Shown piece after piece: positions 7,071-35,758 of a stretch of 64,000 nt of DNA. The notes under the pieces are model-generated. The model saw only the letters and a program-made list of their open reading frames with translations. It ran no database searches and was not told where the DNA came from. The position numbers and the translations under genes were made by a program. Each line of letters begins with the position of its first letter. The first letter of the stretch is position 1. The stretch spans positions 621,710-685,709 of the forward strand of contig CAVXAL010000002.1 of NCBI GenBank assembly GCA_963759765.1. The letters are read 5' to 3'. This DNA comes from Candidatus Aminicenantes bacterium. Its GTDB lineage: Bacteria; Acidobacteriota; Aminicenantia; UBA2199.

Positions 7071-8269
7071 TGAACCTCTCTCTGCGTGCCCGCGAAATTC
7101 AAGAGTCACCAATCCGCAAGTTGAATACCCTGGCCAACGAGACCAAGAAACGCGGCATCACCGTCTACCACCTCAACATCGGTCAGCCGGACATTCCCAC
7201 GCCGGAAAACTTCTTAAAGCGAATCGCCGCGTTCCCGGAAAAAGTGCTTTCCTACGGCCCCGCCGACGGTCTGGAGACGCTTAAAGATGCCATGGTCCAT
7301 TATTTCTCCTATTATGGAATTGGCCTGGAAAAGAAGAATATCGTCATTGCCAATGGCGGCAGCGAGGCCATTTCCTTCGCCTTCAACGTGGTGGCCGATC
7401 CCGGCGACGAGATCATTCTGCCCGAGCCTTTTTACACCAATTACAACGGCTACGCGTCGCTCTGCAGCCTGAAGCTCGTGCCGGTGACCACCCTGGCCGA
7501 AAAGGGGTTTCACCTGCCGCCGCTGTCCGAATTTGAGAAACGGGTCACCCCGCAAGACCCGGGCGATTCTCCTCTGCTCGCCCAACAACCCGACCGGTAC
7601 GGTGTACCGCGAAGATGAGATCAGGGCTGTGGGGGAGTTTGCCAAAAAGCACGACATCTACCTGATTGCCGACGAGGTATACAAGGAGTTCACCTATGAC
7701 GGCAAGCGTCATTTCAGCGTACTGCAGCTGAGCGGGCTGGAGGACCGCGTCATCGTGGTCGACTCCATCTCCAAACGTTATTCGGCGTGCGGCGCTCGTA
7801 TCGGGGCGGTCATTTCCCGCAACCTCGAGGTGATAAAGTCGGATCACCAAATTCGCCCAGGCGCGGCTCTGCCCGCCGACCCTGGAGCAAGTCGGGCGCC
7901 ATCGGCGCTTACGAGCTGCCGCTCTCACTATTTCAAGACGTCATGGCCGAATACCAGAAGCGCCGCGATATTCTGTACGGCATCCTGACCTCAAGAAAGG
8001 ACGTCATCCTGCAGAAGCCCGAGGGCGCTTTCTACATCATGGCCAAGCTGCCGATTGATGATTGTGATGATTTTGCGCGCTGGCTGCTGGCCGATTTTTC
8101 CGATAACAACGAGACGGTGATGGTCGCGCCCGGGGCAGGCTTCTATGCCACGCCCGGCAAGGGCAAGAACGAGGCGCGCTTGGCCTATGTGATCGAGGCG
8201 CCCAAGCTCGAGCGCGCCGGCCTTATTTTGCTCAAGGCTTTGGACGCCTACGGAAAAAGGGGAAAATAG
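7071..8269 (+). pseudogene. class I/II PLP-dependent aminotransferase (aspartate aminotransferase-like) interrupted by two frameshifts
   Basis: Three ORF fragments (6944..7618, 7533..7988, 7787..8269; frames 2,3,2) join into one colinear ~399-aa aminotransferase (GQPDIPTP, SPNNPTGTVY, SKRYSACGARIGAV). Shifts near 7548 and 7880 look like single-base indels in C/G runs. Confidence 0.75.
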
Positions 8270-8330
8270 GGAAACAACTTTTGCTTCGCTTCTTATCTCC
8301 CCAAATTGTATTCTTCTGAGGAGGCTTCAC

Positions 8331-8996
8331 ATGAAAAAGTATTTTGGGTTTGTTCTGGTTCTGATTTTAGCTTTGACTCTTGTCGCCGCCGAACAAACAC
8401 ACAAAGTGGTCATTGTCCGGGGAGGGTCCAGAGCGATGGCTGTGCCCATCCAGGCTTTGTCCTTTTCGAAAGCTTTTTCCCAGAAAGCCGCGATCAAACC
8501 CCGGTTTTTTTCTGCGGGAGAAAAATTGAAAATCCTTCAGGAGGCCAAGATCAATGAGGTCAATGGTGTTTCTGCAGCCGCCTGGAAGGTGACCCTCAAA
8601 TCGCCCAACATCAACGACCGAATGTTTATCACGCTGAGCCAGCCCAATTTCGTTTCCACAGAATTTTATGGCACGGGCGTGGCTTTGTTTGATAACAGCG
8701 ACCAATTTTACAAAGCCAATGGAACAGACAAGGCTTTTAATTTGGACTTTTTTGTTGAAGCTGGCAAATGGTATTTGCTCGATTGCGCGGTCAGCGAAAC
8801 CGATGCCACCTACCGGGTGTTTGTTTATCAACAATCGGGTTCTTCGCAGATCACTTTTGAGAATCCTTCGGACGGGCACCTTTTGATCGTCCTGCAGGCC
8901 ACTGCCGCCGGTCAAGCGTATATTGCTGTCACGGGAAATTGCCCCCGCCAGGGTAATTGGGGCATTTACGGAGCCGAAATCACCGTCATCAAATAA
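8331..8996 (+). CDS. secreted hypothetical protein (cleavable signal peptide)
   Basis: MKKYFGFVLVLILALTLVAA signal; RBS GAGGAGG upstream; no recognisable domain. Confidence 0.5.
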   Translation: MKKYFGFVLVLILALTLVAAEQTHKVVIVRGGSRAMAVPIQALSFSKAFSQKAAIKPRFFSAGEKLKILQEAKINEVNGVSAAAWKVTLKSPNINDRMFITLSQPNFVSTEFYGTGVALFDNSDQFYKANGTDKAFNLDFFVEAGKWYLLDCAVSETDATYRVFVYQQSGSSQITFENPSDGHLLIVLQATAAGQAYIAVTGNCPRQGNWGIYGAEITVIK

Positions 8997-9047
8997 GCCC
9001 TTACTTTCAGGTCTACAACCCGATCGAGTGTTGGCTGCTGAAATTTA

Positions 9048-9064
9048 AAATTTTTTAAAAATTT
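9048..9064. repeat. left copy of island-flanking direct repeat (aaattttttaaaaattt)
   Basis: Matches 10739..10754 (aaattttttaaatatt) at 15 of 16 positions; candidate attL/attR or target duplication. Confidence 0.4.
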
Positions 9065-9071
9065 CTTAAAA

Positions 9072-9455
9072 CTACGGCTTAATATGAAGAACCGAGCTCT
9101 CCGAAAGGTGTATTGCCTTCAGCAGTATTTCTGATTCATTAGATGGCCATCCAATAATATTAGTATGACGTTTTGGGATATTATCTGGATCCAATTTTAA
9201 GCAACAACTATAAATTGAAGATGCGGTTATATCAGCGCGTGCTTTTAAACTACTTGGTCTATTTTTCTCAACTTGAACTCCTATTAACCATATTGCGCTT
9301 TCAGACAAGTCGTATATTCTAAAAACTGACAATTTCTTATTTTGAGGCGGCATGAAGGCACGATGCTTAACACAGTTATTTTCTGAACTAAAATCTTTTT
9401 TTGAAAAAAGAAATCTTGATAGTTTTTCAGATGCTTTGATTTGATGATTATTCAA
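9072..9455 (-). CDS. hypothetical protein (island gene 3, 127 aa)
   Basis: AT-rich ORF; start 1 nt after stop of gene 2; no family recognised (..KHRAFMPPQNKKLSVFRIYDLSESAIWLIG..RHTNIIGWP..). Confidence 0.5.
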   Translation of the reverse strand: MNNHQIKASEKLSRFLFSKKDFSSENNCVKHRAFMPPQNKKLSVFRIYDLSESAIWLIGVQVEKNRPSSLKARADITASSIYSCCLKLDPDNIPKRHTNIIGWPSNESEILLKAIHLSESSVLHIKP

Positions 9456-9456
9456 A

Positions 9457-9942
9457 TTAAAATCCCAACCTTTTAAAATTTTCTATTATTACTGGTGGCA
9501 ATGCGTTTTCGAAATATTCATTCCCATGAATCTGATTCCCCCCAAATATTCCCGCATATTTAATAATTTTTGTATTCCCAATATTTATTATAAAAATTCT
9601 ATTTCTGTCCTTCCTCCATTCAAATCCCACATCTCCATTTGGTTCGATACAAATTTCAGGGAATGGAATAAAGGATGGTATAAGATTTAGAAATTTTTTA
9701 GCTTCAAAGTAAGCATCAATGGATAAGGGTTTGGCTCCCTCTCCATCCCAATCTTCATTCTTACATTCAATTTGTAACTTTTTTAATTCATAAAGGATTT
9801 GATTAAGAAACAATTCGTTAGATGTCTTGTTCTTCCAAATTGGTTTATTTTCATAAATCTTTTCATCTTTGGAGCTTGTACAACTTTGATAACTATTGAT
9901 ATTATAGCATATAGGTGTGGAGCATATAGCTGGGGTGCTCAT
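9457..9942 (-). CDS. hypothetical protein (island gene 2, 161 aa)
   Basis: AT-rich ORF; its ATG overlaps stop of gene 1 (ATGA); Cys-rich N-terminus CSTPICYNINSYQSC; no family recognised. Confidence 0.5.
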   Translation of the reverse strand: MSTPAICSTPICYNINSYQSCTSSKDEKIYENKPIWKNKTSNELFLNQILYELKKLQIECKNEDWDGEGAKPLSIDAYFEAKKFLNLIPSFIPFPEICIEPNGDVGFEWRKDRNRIFIINIGNTKIIKYAGIFGGNQIHGNEYFENALPPVIIENFKRLGF

Positions 9943-10685
9943 ATAAATAACTCCTTTAATTTTTCTGTTATTAAAGAGAAAAAAATTCTATTTTTGAAAT
10001 TTCGTAACCTTTCAAATAATTCCCAAGCTTCGTTATTTTCAAAAAATTCTTTATGTTTAAATACATCTATATCCAGCATTATTGGACAATACCTTGGATC
10101 AACAATCTGTTCGAAGACTTGAGTGATAATTGCTGTAATTCCGGTATCTGGTTCTTCAATTACAACTTTATTAAAGAAACTATTTACTCCTTGTGGCAAT
10201 TCTTTTGGAATAATCGGCGCTGCTGTTAAATACTCATTAAAATCAAGCAATGGTTGCGGATATAAAGGAATACTAATTTTATTTATATACCTAACTGCAA
10301 CTCTTATGATTTCAGGATTTACTAAATCTCTATATATCTTCCAAATTCTATAAGCCTCATCTCTAAGATTCTCCCAGCATTCATAAGGGTTTAACCGATT
10401 AAAAGTAAAGCCATCTATTCTTGTTTGGACAATCTGCTTTTTATCAATAGTTCTAAACCAATACCCTTTTAAAGTTTCTGAACTTGTCGATAAAGGTTTT
10501 AAATCTTTTTTTAACTCAAGCTTACTTTCAAATTCAATTGCCTCTGTTTTTTCTGGATATTGATTTTTTATTTTTTCGTGAATAGAAAGAAATTGTTTCA
10601 CATCAAAATCACTTTTCAACTTTGTCTTTAAATCAATTAATGCTTCATAAATCGGAGCATTATTAAGATGAGCTATCTCTGCCAC
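9939..10685 (-). CDS. hypothetical protein (island gene 1, 248 aa), possibly TIGR04255-like uncharacterised family
   Basis: GTG start at 10685 with GAGGAAAA SD. N-terminal LNNAPIYEALIDL and central RVAVRYINKISIP resemble my recollection of TIGR04255 proteins; unverified. Confidence 0.5.
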   Translation of the reverse strand: MAEIAHLNNAPIYEALIDLKTKLKSDFDVKQFLSIHEKIKNQYPEKTEAIEFESKLELKKDLKPLSTSSETLKGYWFRTIDKKQIVQTRIDGFTFNRLNPYECWENLRDEAYRIWKIYRDLVNPEIIRVAVRYINKISIPLYPQPLLDFNEYLTAAPIIPKELPQGVNSFFNKVVIEEPDTGITAIITQVFEQIVDPRYCPIMLDIDVFKHKEFFENNEAWELFERLRNFKNRIFFSLITEKLKELFI

Positions 10686-10707
10686 TTTTCCTCACATTTT
10701 TTATTTT

Positions 10708-10737
10708 ATTATAGCAGCACTCAATCTTTTTTCTCAA
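10708..10737 (-). promoter_or_regulatory. candidate sigma70 promoter for the island operon (TTGAGA-18-TGcTATAAT)
   Basis: Read on minus strand between purA stop and island gene 1; extended -10 TGn. Confidence 0.35.
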
Positions 10738-10745
10738 TAAATTTT

Positions 10746-12020
<1,275 letters not shown>

Positions 12021-12029
12021 GGCGGGTCG

Positions 12030-13281
12030 CTATTTCACCTTGATGATCAGCACGGTGAAGTCGTCGCGGAATTTCCGCTTGTGGGAGAACCCGCGGATCT
12101 TGCGGTAAAGCCCGGCGGCAATATCGGGGGCCGTGTTCAGGCGGTGGCTCTGGATGTAGTGGAGAATGCCGATTTCACCGAACTCTTCCCCTCGCGCGTT
12201 CTCCACTTCGTGGACGCCGTCGGTGAAAGCGATGATGATGTCGCCGCTTTTCAGGGGCATGGTGCTCTCTTCGTACGTGGCCTCCTCGCTGAAACCCAGC
12301 AACAGACCGCCCGGAGCAAGTTTGTGTATCTTCTGACCGGAGAGCACGATGGGGCTATAGTGGCCGGCGTTGACGTAGGTGATGGCCGGATTCTCGTCAT
12401 CGAGCAGTATCCAGAGCAGGGTGATGAAGTGCATACCCCGGGTGATCTCCAGAATGAGGGAGTTGGCCTTCTGGATGAACTTGGCCGGCTGAAACAGATA
12501 GAGTTCGTTGAGGGTGTGAAAAACCGCTTGGGCGGAGCTGGCCAGCAGGGCGGCCGACAGCCCCTTACCCTCGACGTCGGCCAACACCAGCGGCTGGATA
12601 TTTTTTTTCTTTTTCGGGATATCGTAATAGTCTCCGCCCACTTCTTGAATAGGGATGTAGATGACCCCGATGTCGTAGTGTCGCATGTCGGGCATGTGCT
12701 GGGGCAGGAGCGAAAGCTGAATGTCGCGGGCGATGGACAGCTCGTGTTCCAGGCTTTTTTTCTCGATGATCTGCTGCCAGGTAGTGGATATTGTCCAGGC
12801 CGATCGAGCAGAAGCGCGACAAGAAGAAAACGAATTCCTGTTCTTCGTGCTCAATTCGCTGCGGAATTGAACTTTTGGCCCAGGCCGAGAATAATATTTT
12901 TCTTCTTGTTCTGGGAGAGGCTGAGCAGGTAATAGATCTCTTTGATTCCAACAGGTCGCGGAGCGGGCGCGCGTCCTTGTTGAGGTCAGCCACTTTCAGG
13001 CAGGTGAAGGGCGCCACCTCATTCTGGACGTTTCGTTTCAGGTACTGCAGCTCCTGGGGGGCGATGCAAAATCCTTTTTTGCGGAATGTGCCGGAGTTCT
13101 TGTCGAAGAAAAAGGCCCGGGAGATGCCCATGGGCGCCATCAGGATGGAGAAGAAGATGCGCAGGATGTCGTCGACCTGCGAGGAGGAATGGAGAATGGA
13201 GGAAAGTTCATAGATGGAATTCAGCTGCAGTTTTTTGAAGCTGAGTTCCCTGCGCAGGTGGCTCAGATCGATTTCTGCCAT
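12030..13281 (-). pseudogene. GAF-domain PP2C-type serine phosphatase (RsbU/SpoIIE-like), one frameshift near 12790
   Basis: ORFs 12565..13281 (GAF part) and 12030..12854 (PP2C part: DIQLSLLP, GDYYD, GKGLSAAL, DGV.E) overlap in different frames and are colinear. Confidence 0.7.
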
Positions 13282-13317
13282 TTGATCATTTCGCAGGAGT
13301 TGTTGCCGTTGCTCGTT

Positions 13318-13705
13318 TTATATTCGACCGAGTCCATGATTGTTTTCATGATTTTGACACCCAGACCGCTTTTCTTTTTTTTCTTGATCATGTTCCGATG
13401 TTGATCTCTTCATCTGCGGCTCCGGGGGGATGCCGGCGTAGACGATACGAATTTTGATGCCCTCGCTGGTCAGGAAATATTCGATGGTGATGTCCTTGTC
13501 GCTCTTGTTCAGGTAGGAGTGCTTGATGACGTTGGTCACCGCCTCATCGATGGCTAGGGAGATCTTCTGCGCGTCCGTGGTCGAGAAATTGGAGAGGGTG
13601 GTGATGTGCCGGGTGAGATCGACCACCATCTTCAGCAGCTGGGTCTGCGATAGGAAAGTGATCGAGAAATCGGGCCGCTCGGGAAAGACGGTTGAATTTT
13701 TCAAT
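13318..13705 (-). CDS. anti-sigma factor / serine protein kinase (RsbW-like, HATPase_c)
   Basis: LAIDEAVTNVIKHSY N-box and GIKIRIVYAG; N-terminus lacks an in-frame ATG near the domain start (possible TTG ~13705 or upstream indel); 5' end uncertain. Confidence 0.55.
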
Positions 13706-14033: not shown

Positions 14034-14437
14034 TTGCCCTCTCCAAAGAAGAAGTCGATTTCCCGACCGGCGGTCTCGGCCGAATCGGCCCCATGCACGG
14101 CATTCCATTGTAGGTCGATGCCGAATTTCCGGCGAATGGTGCCCGGCTCGGCTTTGGCCGGGTCGGTGGGCCCGATCAGCTTGCGCCATTCCTCCACCGC
14201 ATTCTCCTTTTCCAGAAGCACGGCAAAAATCTGGTCGGAACAGATGAATTCGACGAGGCTCGGAAAGAAAGGCTTCTGGCTATGGGCGGCGTAGAAACGC
14301 CCCGCTTGGTCGGGGGTCAGGCGGAGAGTTTTAATACGGAGGATGTGGAAGTCGTGGTGCTCGATCTCGGAAATGATCGTGCCGACGATCCTGCGGCGCA
14401 CCGCGTCGGGTTTGATCAGGGCCAGTGTCTGGTTCAT
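14030..14437 (-). CDS. ndk: nucleoside diphosphate kinase
   Basis: TLALIKPDAV, active-site NAVHGADS (His) motif. Confidence 0.85.
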   Translation of the reverse strand: MNQTLALIKPDAVRRRIVGTIISEIEHHDFHILRIKTLRLTPDQAGRFYAAHSQKPFFPSLVEFICSDQIFAVLLEKENAVEEWRKLIGPTDPAKAEPGTIRRKFGIDLQWNAVHGADSAETAGREIDFFFGEGK

Positions 14438-14550
14438 TTTTTCCTTGCTGCTATTGTAAAATAAACAGGGGTAAATTTCAAATGAATGAGCCCATTACGG
14501 AAGATGGAGCCAGATGGATAAGAGGATGCTATTGACTTTCGTTTTTCTAA

Positions 14551-14583
14551 ATAGTACAATAATAGTACAATAATAGTACAATA
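14551..14583 (+). promoter_or_regulatory. three tandem 11-bp direct repeats (atagtacaata) upstream of pstS; candidate PhoP/PhoB-type box
   Basis: atagtacaata x3 ending 12 nt before the pstS ATG, RBS GGGAGG follows; 11-bp periodicity matches Pho-box architecture. Confidence 0.4.
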
Positions 14584-14595
14584 GGGAGGCTTATA

Positions 14596-15552
14596 ATGAA
14601 AAAGGCATGGGTCGTTGTTGCTGCCCTAACAGTTCTGCTGGGCTGCCAGACCAGCAAGAAGCAGGCACAGGGCCAAGAAGAAACGCGAGGCACCATCACC
14701 CTTTCCGGCGCTTTTGCTCTTTATCCCATGGTGGTGAAATGGGCGGAGGAATATAAAAAGATCTGTCCCCAGGTCACAATGGACATATCGGCGGGCGGGG
14801 CAGGCAAGGGAATTGTTGATGCCTTGGCCGGCGCGGTGGACATCGGTATGGTCTCGCGCACGATCCATCCCGCCGAAATTGAAAAGGGCGCCTGGTGGGT
14901 GGCTGTGACCAAGGATGCGGTGGTGGCCGTGGTCAACGAAAACAATCCGCTGGTGGCGGAGCTGCTCGGCCACGGCTTGAAGCGGGAAACGCTGGCCGCC
15001 ATCTGGTTGAAGGGCACTGTGGCGACTTGGGAGGCGGCGCTGGAACGCGGCGGCAACCATCCCATTCACCTGTATACCCGCTCCGACGCCTGCGGCGCCG
15101 GGGAGACCTGGGCGCAATATTTGGGTAAAAAACAGGAAGACCTGCTGGGCATCGGTGTTTATGGGGATCCCGGGCTGGCCGATGCGGTAAAAAAAGACTT
15201 GCTGGGGATCGGCTACAACAATGTCAACTACGCCTACGACGCTGCCAGCAAGCGGCCTGTGGCCGGGCTGCGCATTTTGCCGCTGGATCTGAACGGCAAC
15301 GGCAGGGTGGAAACGCAGGAGAATTTTTACGGTCAGCGTGATGAACTGGTGGCAGCCATTGCCGACGGCCGCTATCCCAACCCTCCGGCTCGCGAGCTCT
15401 ATTTCGTTTGCCGCGGTCGGCCCACGAACAAGACGGTGGCTCGTTTCATCCGCTGGGTGTTGAGCGACGGCCAGCGCTTTGTTGCCGATGCCGGTTACAT
15501 CCGTCTGGCCGACAGCACGCTGCAGGCGGGCGTGGCCAAGCTGGGCGACTGA
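14596..15552 (+). CDS. pstS: phosphate ABC transporter substrate-binding lipoprotein, PstS family
   Basis: Lipoprotein signal LLGCQ; TLSGAFALYP and SAGGAGKGI blocks. Confidence 0.8.
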   Translation: MKKAWVVVAALTVLLGCQTSKKQAQGQEETRGTITLSGAFALYPMVVKWAEEYKKICPQVTMDISAGGAGKGIVDALAGAVDIGMVSRTIHPAEIEKGAWWVAVTKDAVVAVVNENNPLVAELLGHGLKRETLAAIWLKGTVATWEAALERGGNHPIHLYTRSDACGAGETWAQYLGKKQEDLLGIGVYGDPGLADAVKKDLLGIGYNNVNYAYDAASKRPVAGLRILPLDLNGNGRVETQENFYGQRDELVAAIADGRYPNPPARELYFVCRGRPTNKTVARFIRWVLSDGQRFVADAGYIRLADSTLQAGVAKLGD

Positions 15553-34091: not shown

Positions 34092-34508
34092 CTAGTTTTG
34101 CGACCCGGCCGGTAATTTTCTCTCGAGAATATCTTTGATGGAGATATACAGAAATCGGGTCTGTATAGCCTGTTCCAGAATTTCCCAAACCGATTTGGCC
34201 AGGCAACTTTCCACCAGCGGACATTTTTTATCGTTCAGGCAATCGGTCAAATATATTTTTTCGTCGAAGGCGTCCATGATCATCTTGATAGTGATCTCCT
34301 CTGGTTTCTTATTCAACACGTAGCCGCCGTATATGCCTTGGACGCTTTTGATGATGGCGGCTTTTTCCAGAGGGCCGGCCAGTTTACGCAGGTACTTGGA
34401 GGATACCTTGATCTCGTTTCCCAGCTTGCTGGTATTGATCACCCGGTTTTCCCGGGCGATCCCCAAGACCATGCGCAGGCCGTAACGGATTTTGGTATTC
34501 ATTTTCAT
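34092..34508 (-). CDS. Rrf2 family transcriptional regulator with three-Cys Fe-S ligand motif
   Basis: N-terminal wHTH (KIRYGLRMVLGIA); CLNDKKCPLVESC (C-x6-C-x5-C). Confidence 0.8.
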   Translation of the reverse strand: MKMNTKIRYGLRMVLGIARENRVINTSKLGNEIKVSSKYLRKLAGPLEKAAIIKSVQGIYGGYVLNKKPEEITIKMIMDAFDEKIYLTDCLNDKKCPLVESCLAKSVWEILEQAIQTRFLYISIKDILERKLPAGSQN

Positions 34509-34671
34509 GAAAGAAAATATAACTCATCTGGTTTTAATTGTCAATTGTCAAGTCTTTTTTTCTTAATTTTTTATTTTGTGTAGAAAAAAGGTAAATTTTC
34601 CTGCAATATCGGCTATTTTGCTAAATGAACGCTTTCCGGGTCTTGTGCTGAAAAAAAGTGAGGTGCTGGCC

Positions 34672-35670
34672 CTATTTCTCTTTTTGCAGCCCTTTCAGAA
34701 ATTCCTCGGAAGCTATCTTGAGCTTGCGCAGTTCGGTGAATTTGGCCACCAGCCGGTCCCTTTCTTTCCAGTGCTCGTCATGTCTGCTGGAATCGATCTT
34801 GTCTTTTTCCACGTTGAGCAAGCCCATGTAGCTCCAGGGGTCCGGGTAATTGGGTTCCAGCTCGGCTGCTTTCTGGAGTGCGGCCAGTCCCTTATCGATG
34901 ATTGCTTGCCTTTCCTTGGGTGCCATCAAATCGGGCGGGGTCTGATAGCTGTGGGCCCAGCAGAGATGGCCGACGCGGTAATAAGCGTCCGCCAGCATGC
35001 TGGTTTTTTCCTTCTCATCGAGGTCGGTCAGCTGCTGGATTTTTTGGAGCCGCAGCTCTTGGTATTTCATAGCGTCATCCCATTTTTTACGGTCAAAATA
35101 ATAGCGGGCCAGGAACAGATACCCTTCCGGGTCATTGGGGTTGAGGTCGATCCGTTTCTGGAACATCTCCACGGCTTTGTCGCCTTTATTGTAACTGGTA
35201 TAGAAATCCGCCAGCACGCTGTAAATCTTGGGATCGTTGGGATTGTTTTCCAGTACTTTAAGAAAATATTTTTCGGCTTCCTCGAAGTTTTTCGTCTTGT
35301 CGTTGATATCGCCCAGGGCCAGGATAATGTCCTTGTTATTCGGGTCCACGTCCAGGGCCTTCTGCAAGTAATCCTTGGCATTGGCGGCCAGTTCTTTGTT
35401 ATTCGGCGTATCGTCGCCGGGCTTGTAGAGCATGGCGTAGGCGGTTCCCAGGTAGAAATAGACGGCTTTGAAATTGGGATTGAGTTTCAGGGCCTCCTCG
35501 TATTCGCTGACCGCTTTCTTATACTTTTCTTCCGAATAGTATTTATTGGCCGTTTTAAAATGACTGTTGGCTTTCAAGTTAGCCACTTTGAATTTTTGGC
35601 AGGCAGAAAAGCCGAGAACGATCACCCCCAGCAAGCACATTACCAGCAGGGCGGATGACAATTTTTTCAT
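34672..35670 (-). CDS. TPR-repeat lipoprotein
   Basis: MKKLSSALLVMCLLGVIVLGFSAC lipoprotein signal with GGAGG RBS; multiple TPR units (LNPNxxxxYxxLGxxY). Confidence 0.75.
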   Translation of the reverse strand: MKKLSSALLVMCLLGVIVLGFSACQKFKVANLKANSHFKTANKYYSEEKYKKAVSEYEEALKLNPNFKAVYFYLGTAYAMLYKPGDDTPNNKELAANAKDYLQKALDVDPNNKDIILALGDINDKTKNFEEAEKYFLKVLENNPNDPKIYSVLADFYTSYNKGDKAVEMFQKRIDLNPNDPEGYLFLARYYFDRKKWDDAMKYQELRLQKIQQLTDLDEKEKTSMLADAYYRVGHLCWAHSYQTPPDLMAPKERQAIIDKGLAALQKAAELEPNYPDPWSYMGLLNVEKDKIDSSRHDEHWKERDRLVAKFTELRKLKIASEEFLKGLQKEK

Positions 35671-35758
35671 ACGGACCTCCTCAACATTGAGATACATATA
35701 TAACGGAATATCGCCCAAAAGTCAAGTTTCATCCGGCCTCAATCTGCTGCCGGGGAAT

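Follow-up and report, generated by a model that had tools for sequence, protein, structure and literature searches.

Directly downstream of purA in the genome of a Candidatus Aminicenantes bacterium, three small genes occupy a segment of 30.1% GC (positions 9041-10758) in a window with a mean GC content of 57.5%. The window is the whole stretch of DNA that was analysed, 64,000 nt of contig CAVXAL010000002.1. Where did this segment come from, and what do its genes do? An earlier note on the same DNA, made from the sequence alone, regarded it as horizontally acquired and as a candidate for an undescribed toxin/immunity or phage-defence cassette. Here, we report that it belongs to a widespread, uncharacterised family of three-gene cassettes, that the third protein is predicted to have an ADP-ribosyltransferase (ART) fold, and that the second and third genes differ among related cassettes that share the first. 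We consider it probable, although well short of certain, that the segment is a recently acquired, self-contained tripartite cassette of a toxin-antitoxin-like or abortive-infection type.

Three protein families in a conserved order

The three open reading frames (ORFs) of 248, 161 and 127 amino acids (aa) are located on the same strand, exactly as the earlier note had listed them, and are here referred to as genes 1, 2 and 3. All are intact and translationally coupled (genes 1 and 2 overlap by ATGA, and genes 2 and 3 are separated by 1 nt), and thus have the layout of type II toxin-antitoxin (TA) systems, that is, adjacent, co-oriented and translationally coupled small genes. The note had been unable to place any of them in a family. 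This holds for genes 2 and 3 in the sense that neither has a Pfam model, although both belong to large families, but not for gene 1, which is a full-length member of the NCBIfam family TIGR04255 (E = 8e-34, 117.5 bits against a cut-off of 30, profile positions 2-251 of 252). Homologues of gene 1 carry the TIGR04255 label from both JGI and NCBI; one word-filtered, word-indexed search yielded 739 homologous clusters at 90% identity, and the best non-self homologue was 61% identical.

We scanned one genome per species for gene 1 and obtained at least 366 confirmed loci, 80 of which were examined. In most of these loci, tblastn searches with the three window proteins located gene 2 and gene 3 immediately behind gene 1, without change of order or strand. 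This arrangement, which we call type A, was present in 53 of the 71 loci for which 1 kb or more of downstream sequence was available. The ATGA overlap of genes 1 and 2 was found in 49 of 51 loci, and the spacing between genes 2 and 3 was likewise conserved. The hosts include Nitrospirota, Thermodesulfovibrionia, Desulfobacterota, Brocadiales and other Planctomycetota, Bacteroidota, Chloroflexota, Acidobacteriota, Verrucomicrobiota and gamma-proteobacteria. Clustering of the neighbouring ORFs revealed no fourth conserved gene, and the flanks were unrelated between genomes; the GC content of the cassette was usually below that of its flanks. Most flanking genes of type A cassettes were housekeeping genes, while a minority coded for type I restriction enzymes, RadC, RhuM, AbiEii-like ATPases or Dpd proteins.

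Cassettes were also identified in viral sequences. Three IMG/VR contigs contained a complete type A cassette, in one case beside a tail-fibre-like gene. The P2-like Ralstonia phage YO139_2 and two related viral contigs contained a diverged TIGR04255 gene together with a gene 2-like gene and a gene 3-like gene for a protein of 146-156 aa; P2-like prophages carry defence genes in variable hotspots. TIGR04255 was nevertheless rare in mobile elements, with matches in 3 of 72,556 plasmid records and 1 of 50,697 phage records. As a side observation, the complete type A cassette in the viral region L168:5001-10042 (IMGVR_UViG_3300011264_000054) is located directly upstream of two hydrophobic-rich ORFs (161 and 103 aa), and an 847-aa tail-fibre-like ORF lies downstream of the cassette in the same region.

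The family of cassettes is absent from PADLOC-DB v2 and, by a literature search for TIGR04255, CHP04255/IPR026349 and DUF7689, from the papers covered by that search, and none of its three protein families has a described function. Scans of the three proteins against Pfam, PHROGs and PADLOC gave nothing besides TIGR04255 (from NCBIfam) and a weak match to the PADLOC candidate PDC-M32A; genes 1 and 3 had no PADLOC match at E <= 1. The view that the system is undescribed has thus held, though what is undescribed is a widespread and conserved operon and not a set of singletons.

An indication of function comes from gene 3, for which the earlier note had proposed structure prediction. The AlphaFold model of its product (pLDDT 95.8) matched almost exclusively proteins of the ART fold. 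The nearest structure was Tpt1, in which 91 residues aligned to a chain of 179 aa, and further matches (scores in brackets where available) were to AvrPphF/HopF (6.5), Tse2 (6.4), OspC3/CopC (6.2-5.5), DarT (5.2, 4.9, 4.3), RES-domain toxins (5.1, 4.2, 3.6), Tne2, Scabin, TreX/TreTu, SidE/SdeA and the pertussis, cholera-like and diphtheria toxins. On this model, the protein belongs to the ART superfamily by fold. By sequence it matched no described ART family: Pfam gave no match for the window protein (E <= 1) or for 78 members of its family (E <= 0.05), and searches against PDB sequences with single sequences and with the profiles A1-A4 returned only low-complexity or chance matches.

A profile search recovered 341 relatives of gene 3 (90% identity clusters), every one labelled hypothetical. 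Seven residues are invariant in the family (R14, P36, S43, F45, L86, P94 and H97) and seven more are conserved at 90% or above (E10, R46, W56, G59, R73, R96 and W103). We looked for the ART triad [H/R]-[Y/S]-[E/Q/D] on strands 1, 2 and 5, assigning residues by the order of the predicted secondary-structure elements and not by superposition. By this order, R14 is located in strand 1 (residues 11-16) and S43 in strand 2 (42-46), just before a helix, while H97 starts the strand 97-101, the one that normally bears the catalytic glutamate; the residue at this start is an invariant histidine and not glutamate. The family thus carries an Arg-Ser-His trio, all of which is kept in the window copy. Even the diverged third-position proteins of loci L170, L173 and L054, which the hidden Markov model of the family detects barely or not at all, have R, S and H in the same order. 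With histidine in place of the catalytic glutamate and Tpt1 as the nearest structure, a reasonable alternative chemistry for this protein would be transfer to a phosphate group.

In gene 2, the N-terminal part (about 50 residues) varies, whereas the C-terminal domain (residues ~45-159) is conserved, with the pattern WDGYGA.PI ... EP.GEI.FEW ... YAG.FG...HG.EYF ... LP. Because this domain contains few invariant polar residues, the protein looks more like a binding protein than an enzyme. A word-indexed search had returned the query alone; the orphan status that this implied was rejected as an artefact of sensitivity, since an exhaustive HMMER search identified 3158 cluster representatives (50% identity clusters, E <= 0.001) that share the C-terminal domain. 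Longer forms of 236-256 aa occupy the same position in other cassettes. Neither the window protein nor 48 relatives matched a Pfam model, and none of them contains a helix-turn-helix (HTH), ribbon-helix-helix or AbrB domain of the kind by which type II antitoxins bind DNA. PDC-M32A was matched weakly by 35 of the 48 family members (best E = 9e-6), and the match of the window protein was partial (E = 0.0015, profile positions 268-325 of 375).

For gene 1, we compared 80 TIGR04255 proteins with identities of 24-61% to the window protein, the three most distant being plasmid copies (24-32%). Sixteen polar residues were conserved in this set: E14, D18, R20, Q87, D91, T94, Y101, R128, R132, N135, Y152, Q165, D205, D207, K231 and N232. 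Such a set resembles an active site or a pocket for a specific ligand. A resemblance to guanidino kinases is a lead rather than a classification; a Foldseek search of gene 1 against PDB was uninformative, with no significant kinase match, and no Pfam kinase or ligase domain was found in the proteins of the segment.

TIGR04255 also heads cassettes with other second and third genes. In type B, represented by 11 loci (L040, L041, L043, L045, L049, L058, L062, L070, L071, L072 and L076; for example L040:3266-4136), it is accompanied by a 144-aa middle protein with an invariant HPAYQQIIG...HWFWAL and by a DUF7689 protein (E = 1e-43). The invariant residues of the latter (YNC30IAWA with Cys30, H101 and D120/E122/H123) include a Cys-His arrangement like that of papain- or NlpC-like hydrolases and suggest an effector of the Cys-His hydrolase type. 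Cyanobacterial and other loci combine TIGR04255 with proteins of 96 and 178 aa, and a Crinalium plasmid combines it with proteins of 182 and 171 aa. On the Vibrio parahaemolyticus plasmid CP063527.1 (L163, 158-2105), TIGR04255 and a 179-aa hypothetical protein are followed by a P-loop protein annotated as a zeta toxin; the host of this version is culturable, which makes it experimentally tractable. On a Thermus megaplasmid, the TIGR04255 gene is located between a VapBC pair, a DNA methylase and cas6. The third-position protein of one diverged cassette had a faint match to SUKH-4 immunity proteins (E = 0.038).

Comparisons with hhalign revealed no homology between the third genes of types A and B, and only a short N-terminal stretch of the middle proteins was matched, at low probability. 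By profile-profile comparison, the second and third genes of the two types thus appear to be unrelated, and position 3 would accordingly hold an exchangeable, toxin-like effector, with position 2 changing alongside and position 1 remaining constant. Because it heads cassettes with different third genes, we infer that TIGR04255 is a shared regulatory, sensing or stabilising subunit and not a toxin-specific factor. In two loci (L165:555-2444 and L166:2700-4524), a gene 2-like (236-252 aa) and gene 3-like pair was observed behind a protein of 237-244 aa in the position of TIGR04255. This protein had no similarity to TIGR04255 detectable by hhalign (probability 0.2%); either the first gene has been replaced or it is extremely diverged.

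Some middle proteins of types A, B and C, otherwise unrelated, share a short motif, G-[F/V/L]-S-x-[D/E]-[S/A]-x-x-[L/I], at N-terminal residues ~11-35 (alignments A3 and A5; L080:6723-7010). It was noticed post hoc. With a position matrix built from the type A motif, five proteins (four of type B and one of type C) scored higher than all 514 control ORFs, at a similar distance from the N-terminus as in type A; six further middle proteins gave no score, and the motif is degenerate in gene 2 of the window. TIGR04255 may dock at this motif or recognise it.

The segment at the purA locus

The GC content of the segment differs extremely from that of its surroundings. Windows of 1.7 kb elsewhere had a standard deviation of 3.0 percentage points and a minimum of 47%, and windows of 300 nt had GC values of 0.28-0.34 from ~9050 to ~10700, as against 0.58-0.65 on the purA side, which bears out the earlier description of an island of about 33% GC. 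At third codon positions (GC3), genes 1, 2 and 3 have values of 0.20, 0.27 and 0.26, compared to 0.79 for purA and 0.77 for each of the rlmN-like and PP2C-like neighbours. A change-point calculation placed the edges at 9040/9041 and 10758. The edges are sharp, but the drop does not run exactly from stop codon to stop codon, as had been claimed: it begins about 45 nt past the stop of the convergent 221-aa gene (8996) and includes the final four codons of purA. Despite these AT-rich codons, the C-terminus of PurA is of normal length compared to its homologues. Such sharp-edged atypical composition is characteristic of genomic islands, and the extreme composition gap, the patchy distribution over unrelated phyla with differing flanks and the copies in viral contigs and in a Ralstonia phage together support the horizontal origin that the earlier note had proposed.

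The 10-mer AAATTTTTTA occurs three times in the window, as against 0.11 expected, and all copies are within the segment. Two are located at its ends and are a hint of a target-site repeat, a weak one since the third copy is internal (9691-9700); a stronger claim of target-site duplication was dropped for this reason. Scans of the window identified no tRNA gene and no Rfam RNA element, and the three short ORFs of the segment leave no room for an integrase.

Upstream of gene 1, a sigma-70-like promoter site begins 9 nt past the purA stop codon. It has 11 of 12 consensus matches plus the extended -10 TG and is the best in the region; it is a consensus match only, and the total number of sites in the region is not enriched. 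A terminator scan of the segment detected no such site.

The same order of purA, the three genes and the 221-aa gene was found in an independent Logan short-read assembly (ERR10755944), with 4 substitutions in 2916 bp (window 7940-10855), two of which are adjacent and located in gene 3 (9095-9096). Exact-protein look-ups returned only this copy, on a 2.9-kb contig of the same population. The nearest relative of purA in a metagenome scan was 66% identical and was located on a 1.8-kb contig.

Table 1. Positions of the cassette, its ends and its neighbours in the window
Feature	Position	Strand	Basis or remark
Convergent 221-aa gene, signal-peptide protein	8331-8996	+	ORF adjoining the segment
AT-rich segment (island), probably acquired, 30% GC	9041..10758	.	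Composition profile and change-point boundaries
AAATTTTTTA copy, distal end of the segment	9048..9057	.	Pattern search; end matches also in repeat search
Gene 3, 127 aa, predicted ADP-ribosyltransferase fold, putative effector/toxin	9072..9455	-	TTG start 1 nt past gene 2 stop
Gene 2, 161-aa middle protein	9457..9942	-	Start overlaps gene 1 stop (ATGA)
Gene 1, TIGR04255 family, 248 aa, GTG start behind a GAGGA ribosome-binding site	9939..10685	-	NCBIfam match
Sigma-70-like promoter, TTGAGA, 18-nt spacer, TG-TATAAT	10708..10737	-	Consensus scan; upstream of gene 1
AAATTTTTTA copy, purA end of the segment, overlapping the purA stop codon	10739..10748	.	Pattern search; inverted and direct end matches
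purA	10746-12020	-	Same strand as the three cassette genes, which lie downstream

Some other features of the window deviate more mildly. The 221-aa gene has a GC content of 0.485 and a GC3 of 0.56, compared to ~0.78 in its neighbours; its product has an N-terminal signal-peptide-like segment, matches no family and is alone in its 90% identity cluster. It may have been acquired separately and earlier, next to the same junction. GC content is also reduced, though less strongly (0.40-0.50), at window positions 34092-35718, a stretch that contains ORFs of 138 and 348 aa, which by eye resemble an Rrf2-type regulator and a tetratricopeptide-repeat lipoprotein, respectively. Short dips in GC content to 0.45-0.49, with strong changes in AT or GC skew, were seen at 13100-13550 and 14300-14750.

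Proposed mechanism and alternative explanations

In the mechanism that we favour, the cassette is located just downstream of purA, and a promoter-like site of its own seems to drive its transcription. Gene 3 would be a minimal ART-fold enzyme that either uses NAD+ to modify a cellular target or consumes it, leading to growth arrest. Gene 2, always encoded just upstream of gene 3, would be the partner that restrains it, and gene 1, the translation of which is coupled to that of gene 2, may be the control or sensing component; the cassette as a whole may have an anti-phage effect. The early guess of a toxin/immunity or phage-defence function fits the data in that gene 3 has an ART-like predicted fold, a sister cassette encodes a zeta toxin and the genes are tightly coupled.

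A more far-reaching version of this mechanism, which we consider rather unlikely, is that TIGR04255 represents an unrecognised enzyme class with a distant guanidino-kinase-like fold. It would serve as the common sensor or switch of a large family of modular three-part toxin systems, recognise and perhaps covalently modify the motif of the middle proteins, and thereby release interchangeable effectors, gene 3 being a new Arg-Ser-His clade of ARTs with an unusual chemistry, such as Tpt1-like phosphate transfer. A different division of roles, in which TIGR04255 is the enzymatic effector, genes 2 and 3 are sensors or regulators and the ART-fold protein is a modifying switch, would agree with the fact that TIGR04255 is the sole component common to all cassette types identified and shows the strongest conservation of polar, active-site-like residues (over 24-61% identity). 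We nevertheless give this little credence: in known modular defence systems it is usually the variable component that is the effector, a bona fide toxin family (zeta) and toxin-type folds are found among the proteins in third position, and L165 and L166 retain genes 2 and 3 as a pair after a first gene that has no detectable similarity to TIGR04255. It is similarly unlikely that the genes constitute a pathway for nucleic-acid repair or modification, with gene 3 transferring ADP-ribose to an RNA or DNA phosphate in the manner of Tpt1/KptA and gene 1 being a kinase- or ligase-like protein of the glutamine-synthetase/guanidino-kinase fold. The 127 residues of gene 3 do not include the N-terminal RNA-binding lobe, which bears most of the catalytic tetrad of Tpt1. 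Foldseek gave no significant kinase match, and Pfam no kinase or ligase domain. Moreover, the pairing of TIGR04255 with zeta toxin and DUF7689 proteins does not suit a single repair chemistry, and the distribution of the cassette is sporadic, AT-rich and partly phage-borne.

That gene 3 is instead a secreted, ART-like interbacterial toxin and gene 2 its immunity protein is brought to mind by structural neighbours among the toxins of type VI secretion systems and Rhs proteins (Tse2, Tne2, TreX and TreTu) and by the faint SUKH-4 match in a diverged cassette. We regard it as highly improbable, since in the alignments the gene 3 proteins, at 121-135 aa, have no N-terminal extension for delivery, no secretion-system genes are found in the clusters of conserved neighbours or among the most frequent Pfam families of the flanks, and the gene of the putative immunity protein comes before that of the toxin and is coupled to a constant third component, a cytoplasmic protein. 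Finally, the low GC content could be ancestral to this lineage and not a result of acquisition. With the nearest purA relative found at only 66% identity, no empty site could be shown, and the only other contig with the locus comes from the same population (4 single-nucleotide differences in 2916 bp). Set against these points are the difference in GC3 of ~0.5 to all neighbouring genes and the presence of the nearest homologues (61%) in unrelated phyla with different neighbours, which make an ancestral origin extremely unlikely.

If the cassette is indeed a tripartite toxin system, TIGR04255, a named family with no function, would be the hub of a widespread modular three-component toxin system, and two further families with no Pfam models, those of genes 2 and 3, would join the same system. 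Gene 3 would define a new minimal ART clade that does not have the usual catalytic glutamate, and the system would be a new case of effectors that are exchanged while the regulator stays constant. Its range covers many phyla, known mostly from metagenomes. Related cassettes are found in culturable hosts (Vibrio parahaemolyticus, Microcoleus, Crinalium and a Ralstonia solanacearum prophage), which makes experiments cheap and concrete.

Comparison with known systems

Several two-gene TA systems have toxins of the ART fold, namely DarT/DarG, ParT/ParS, MbcT/MbcA and Xre-RES. There is no detectable sequence similarity between these and the cassette, the partner of which is neither a macrodomain nor an Xre/HTH protein, and the cassette has an additional conserved first gene. 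Tpt1/KptA enzymes consist of two lobes and ~180 aa, and their N-terminal RNA-binding lobe bears the Arg-His-Arg of the catalytic tetrad. Gene 3, with 127 aa, matches only part of the chain, has no counterpart to the N-terminal lobe and is found in the context of a mobile cassette.

In the omega-epsilon-zeta systems, the gene order is regulator, antitoxin and toxin, and the first gene codes for a small ribbon-helix-helix repressor. The cassette on the Vibrio plasmid CP063527.1 resembles these in having an annotated zeta toxin in third position. However, the first gene of the cassette codes for an alpha/beta protein of 248 aa with enzyme-like conserved residues, and the putative toxin in the window is ART-like and not a zeta kinase. 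SecB-like chaperones, as in the toxin-antitoxin-chaperone (TAC) systems, and the PanA/DUF4065 "Panacea" antitoxin domain are promiscuous TA partners of many toxin families. TIGR04255 is like them in that one conserved family is combined with many unrelated toxin families; it differs in being unrelated in sequence and fold and in that a separate, family-specific middle protein intervenes.

PDC-M32 is a two-gene PADLOC candidate of no known function (PMC12429752), to which the matches of gene 2 are weak and partial and to which genes 1 and 3 have no match. A precedent for a three-part organisation is the kinase/substrate/VapC system (PMC13373217). Another is the anti-phage system CmdTAC, in which a chaperone senses a phage capsid protein and the loss of the chaperone frees an ART that modifies mRNA (PMC11618068). 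The cassette has no SecB-like chaperone subunit of the TAC/CmdTAC kind, and by the tests applied its three proteins are not homologous to components of either system. The likeness to CmdTAC is one of organisation: both would comprise three small co-transcribed genes, an effector of the ART fold, a partner dedicated to neutralising it and a third protein that is neither toxin nor antitoxin but has a regulatory or sensing role.

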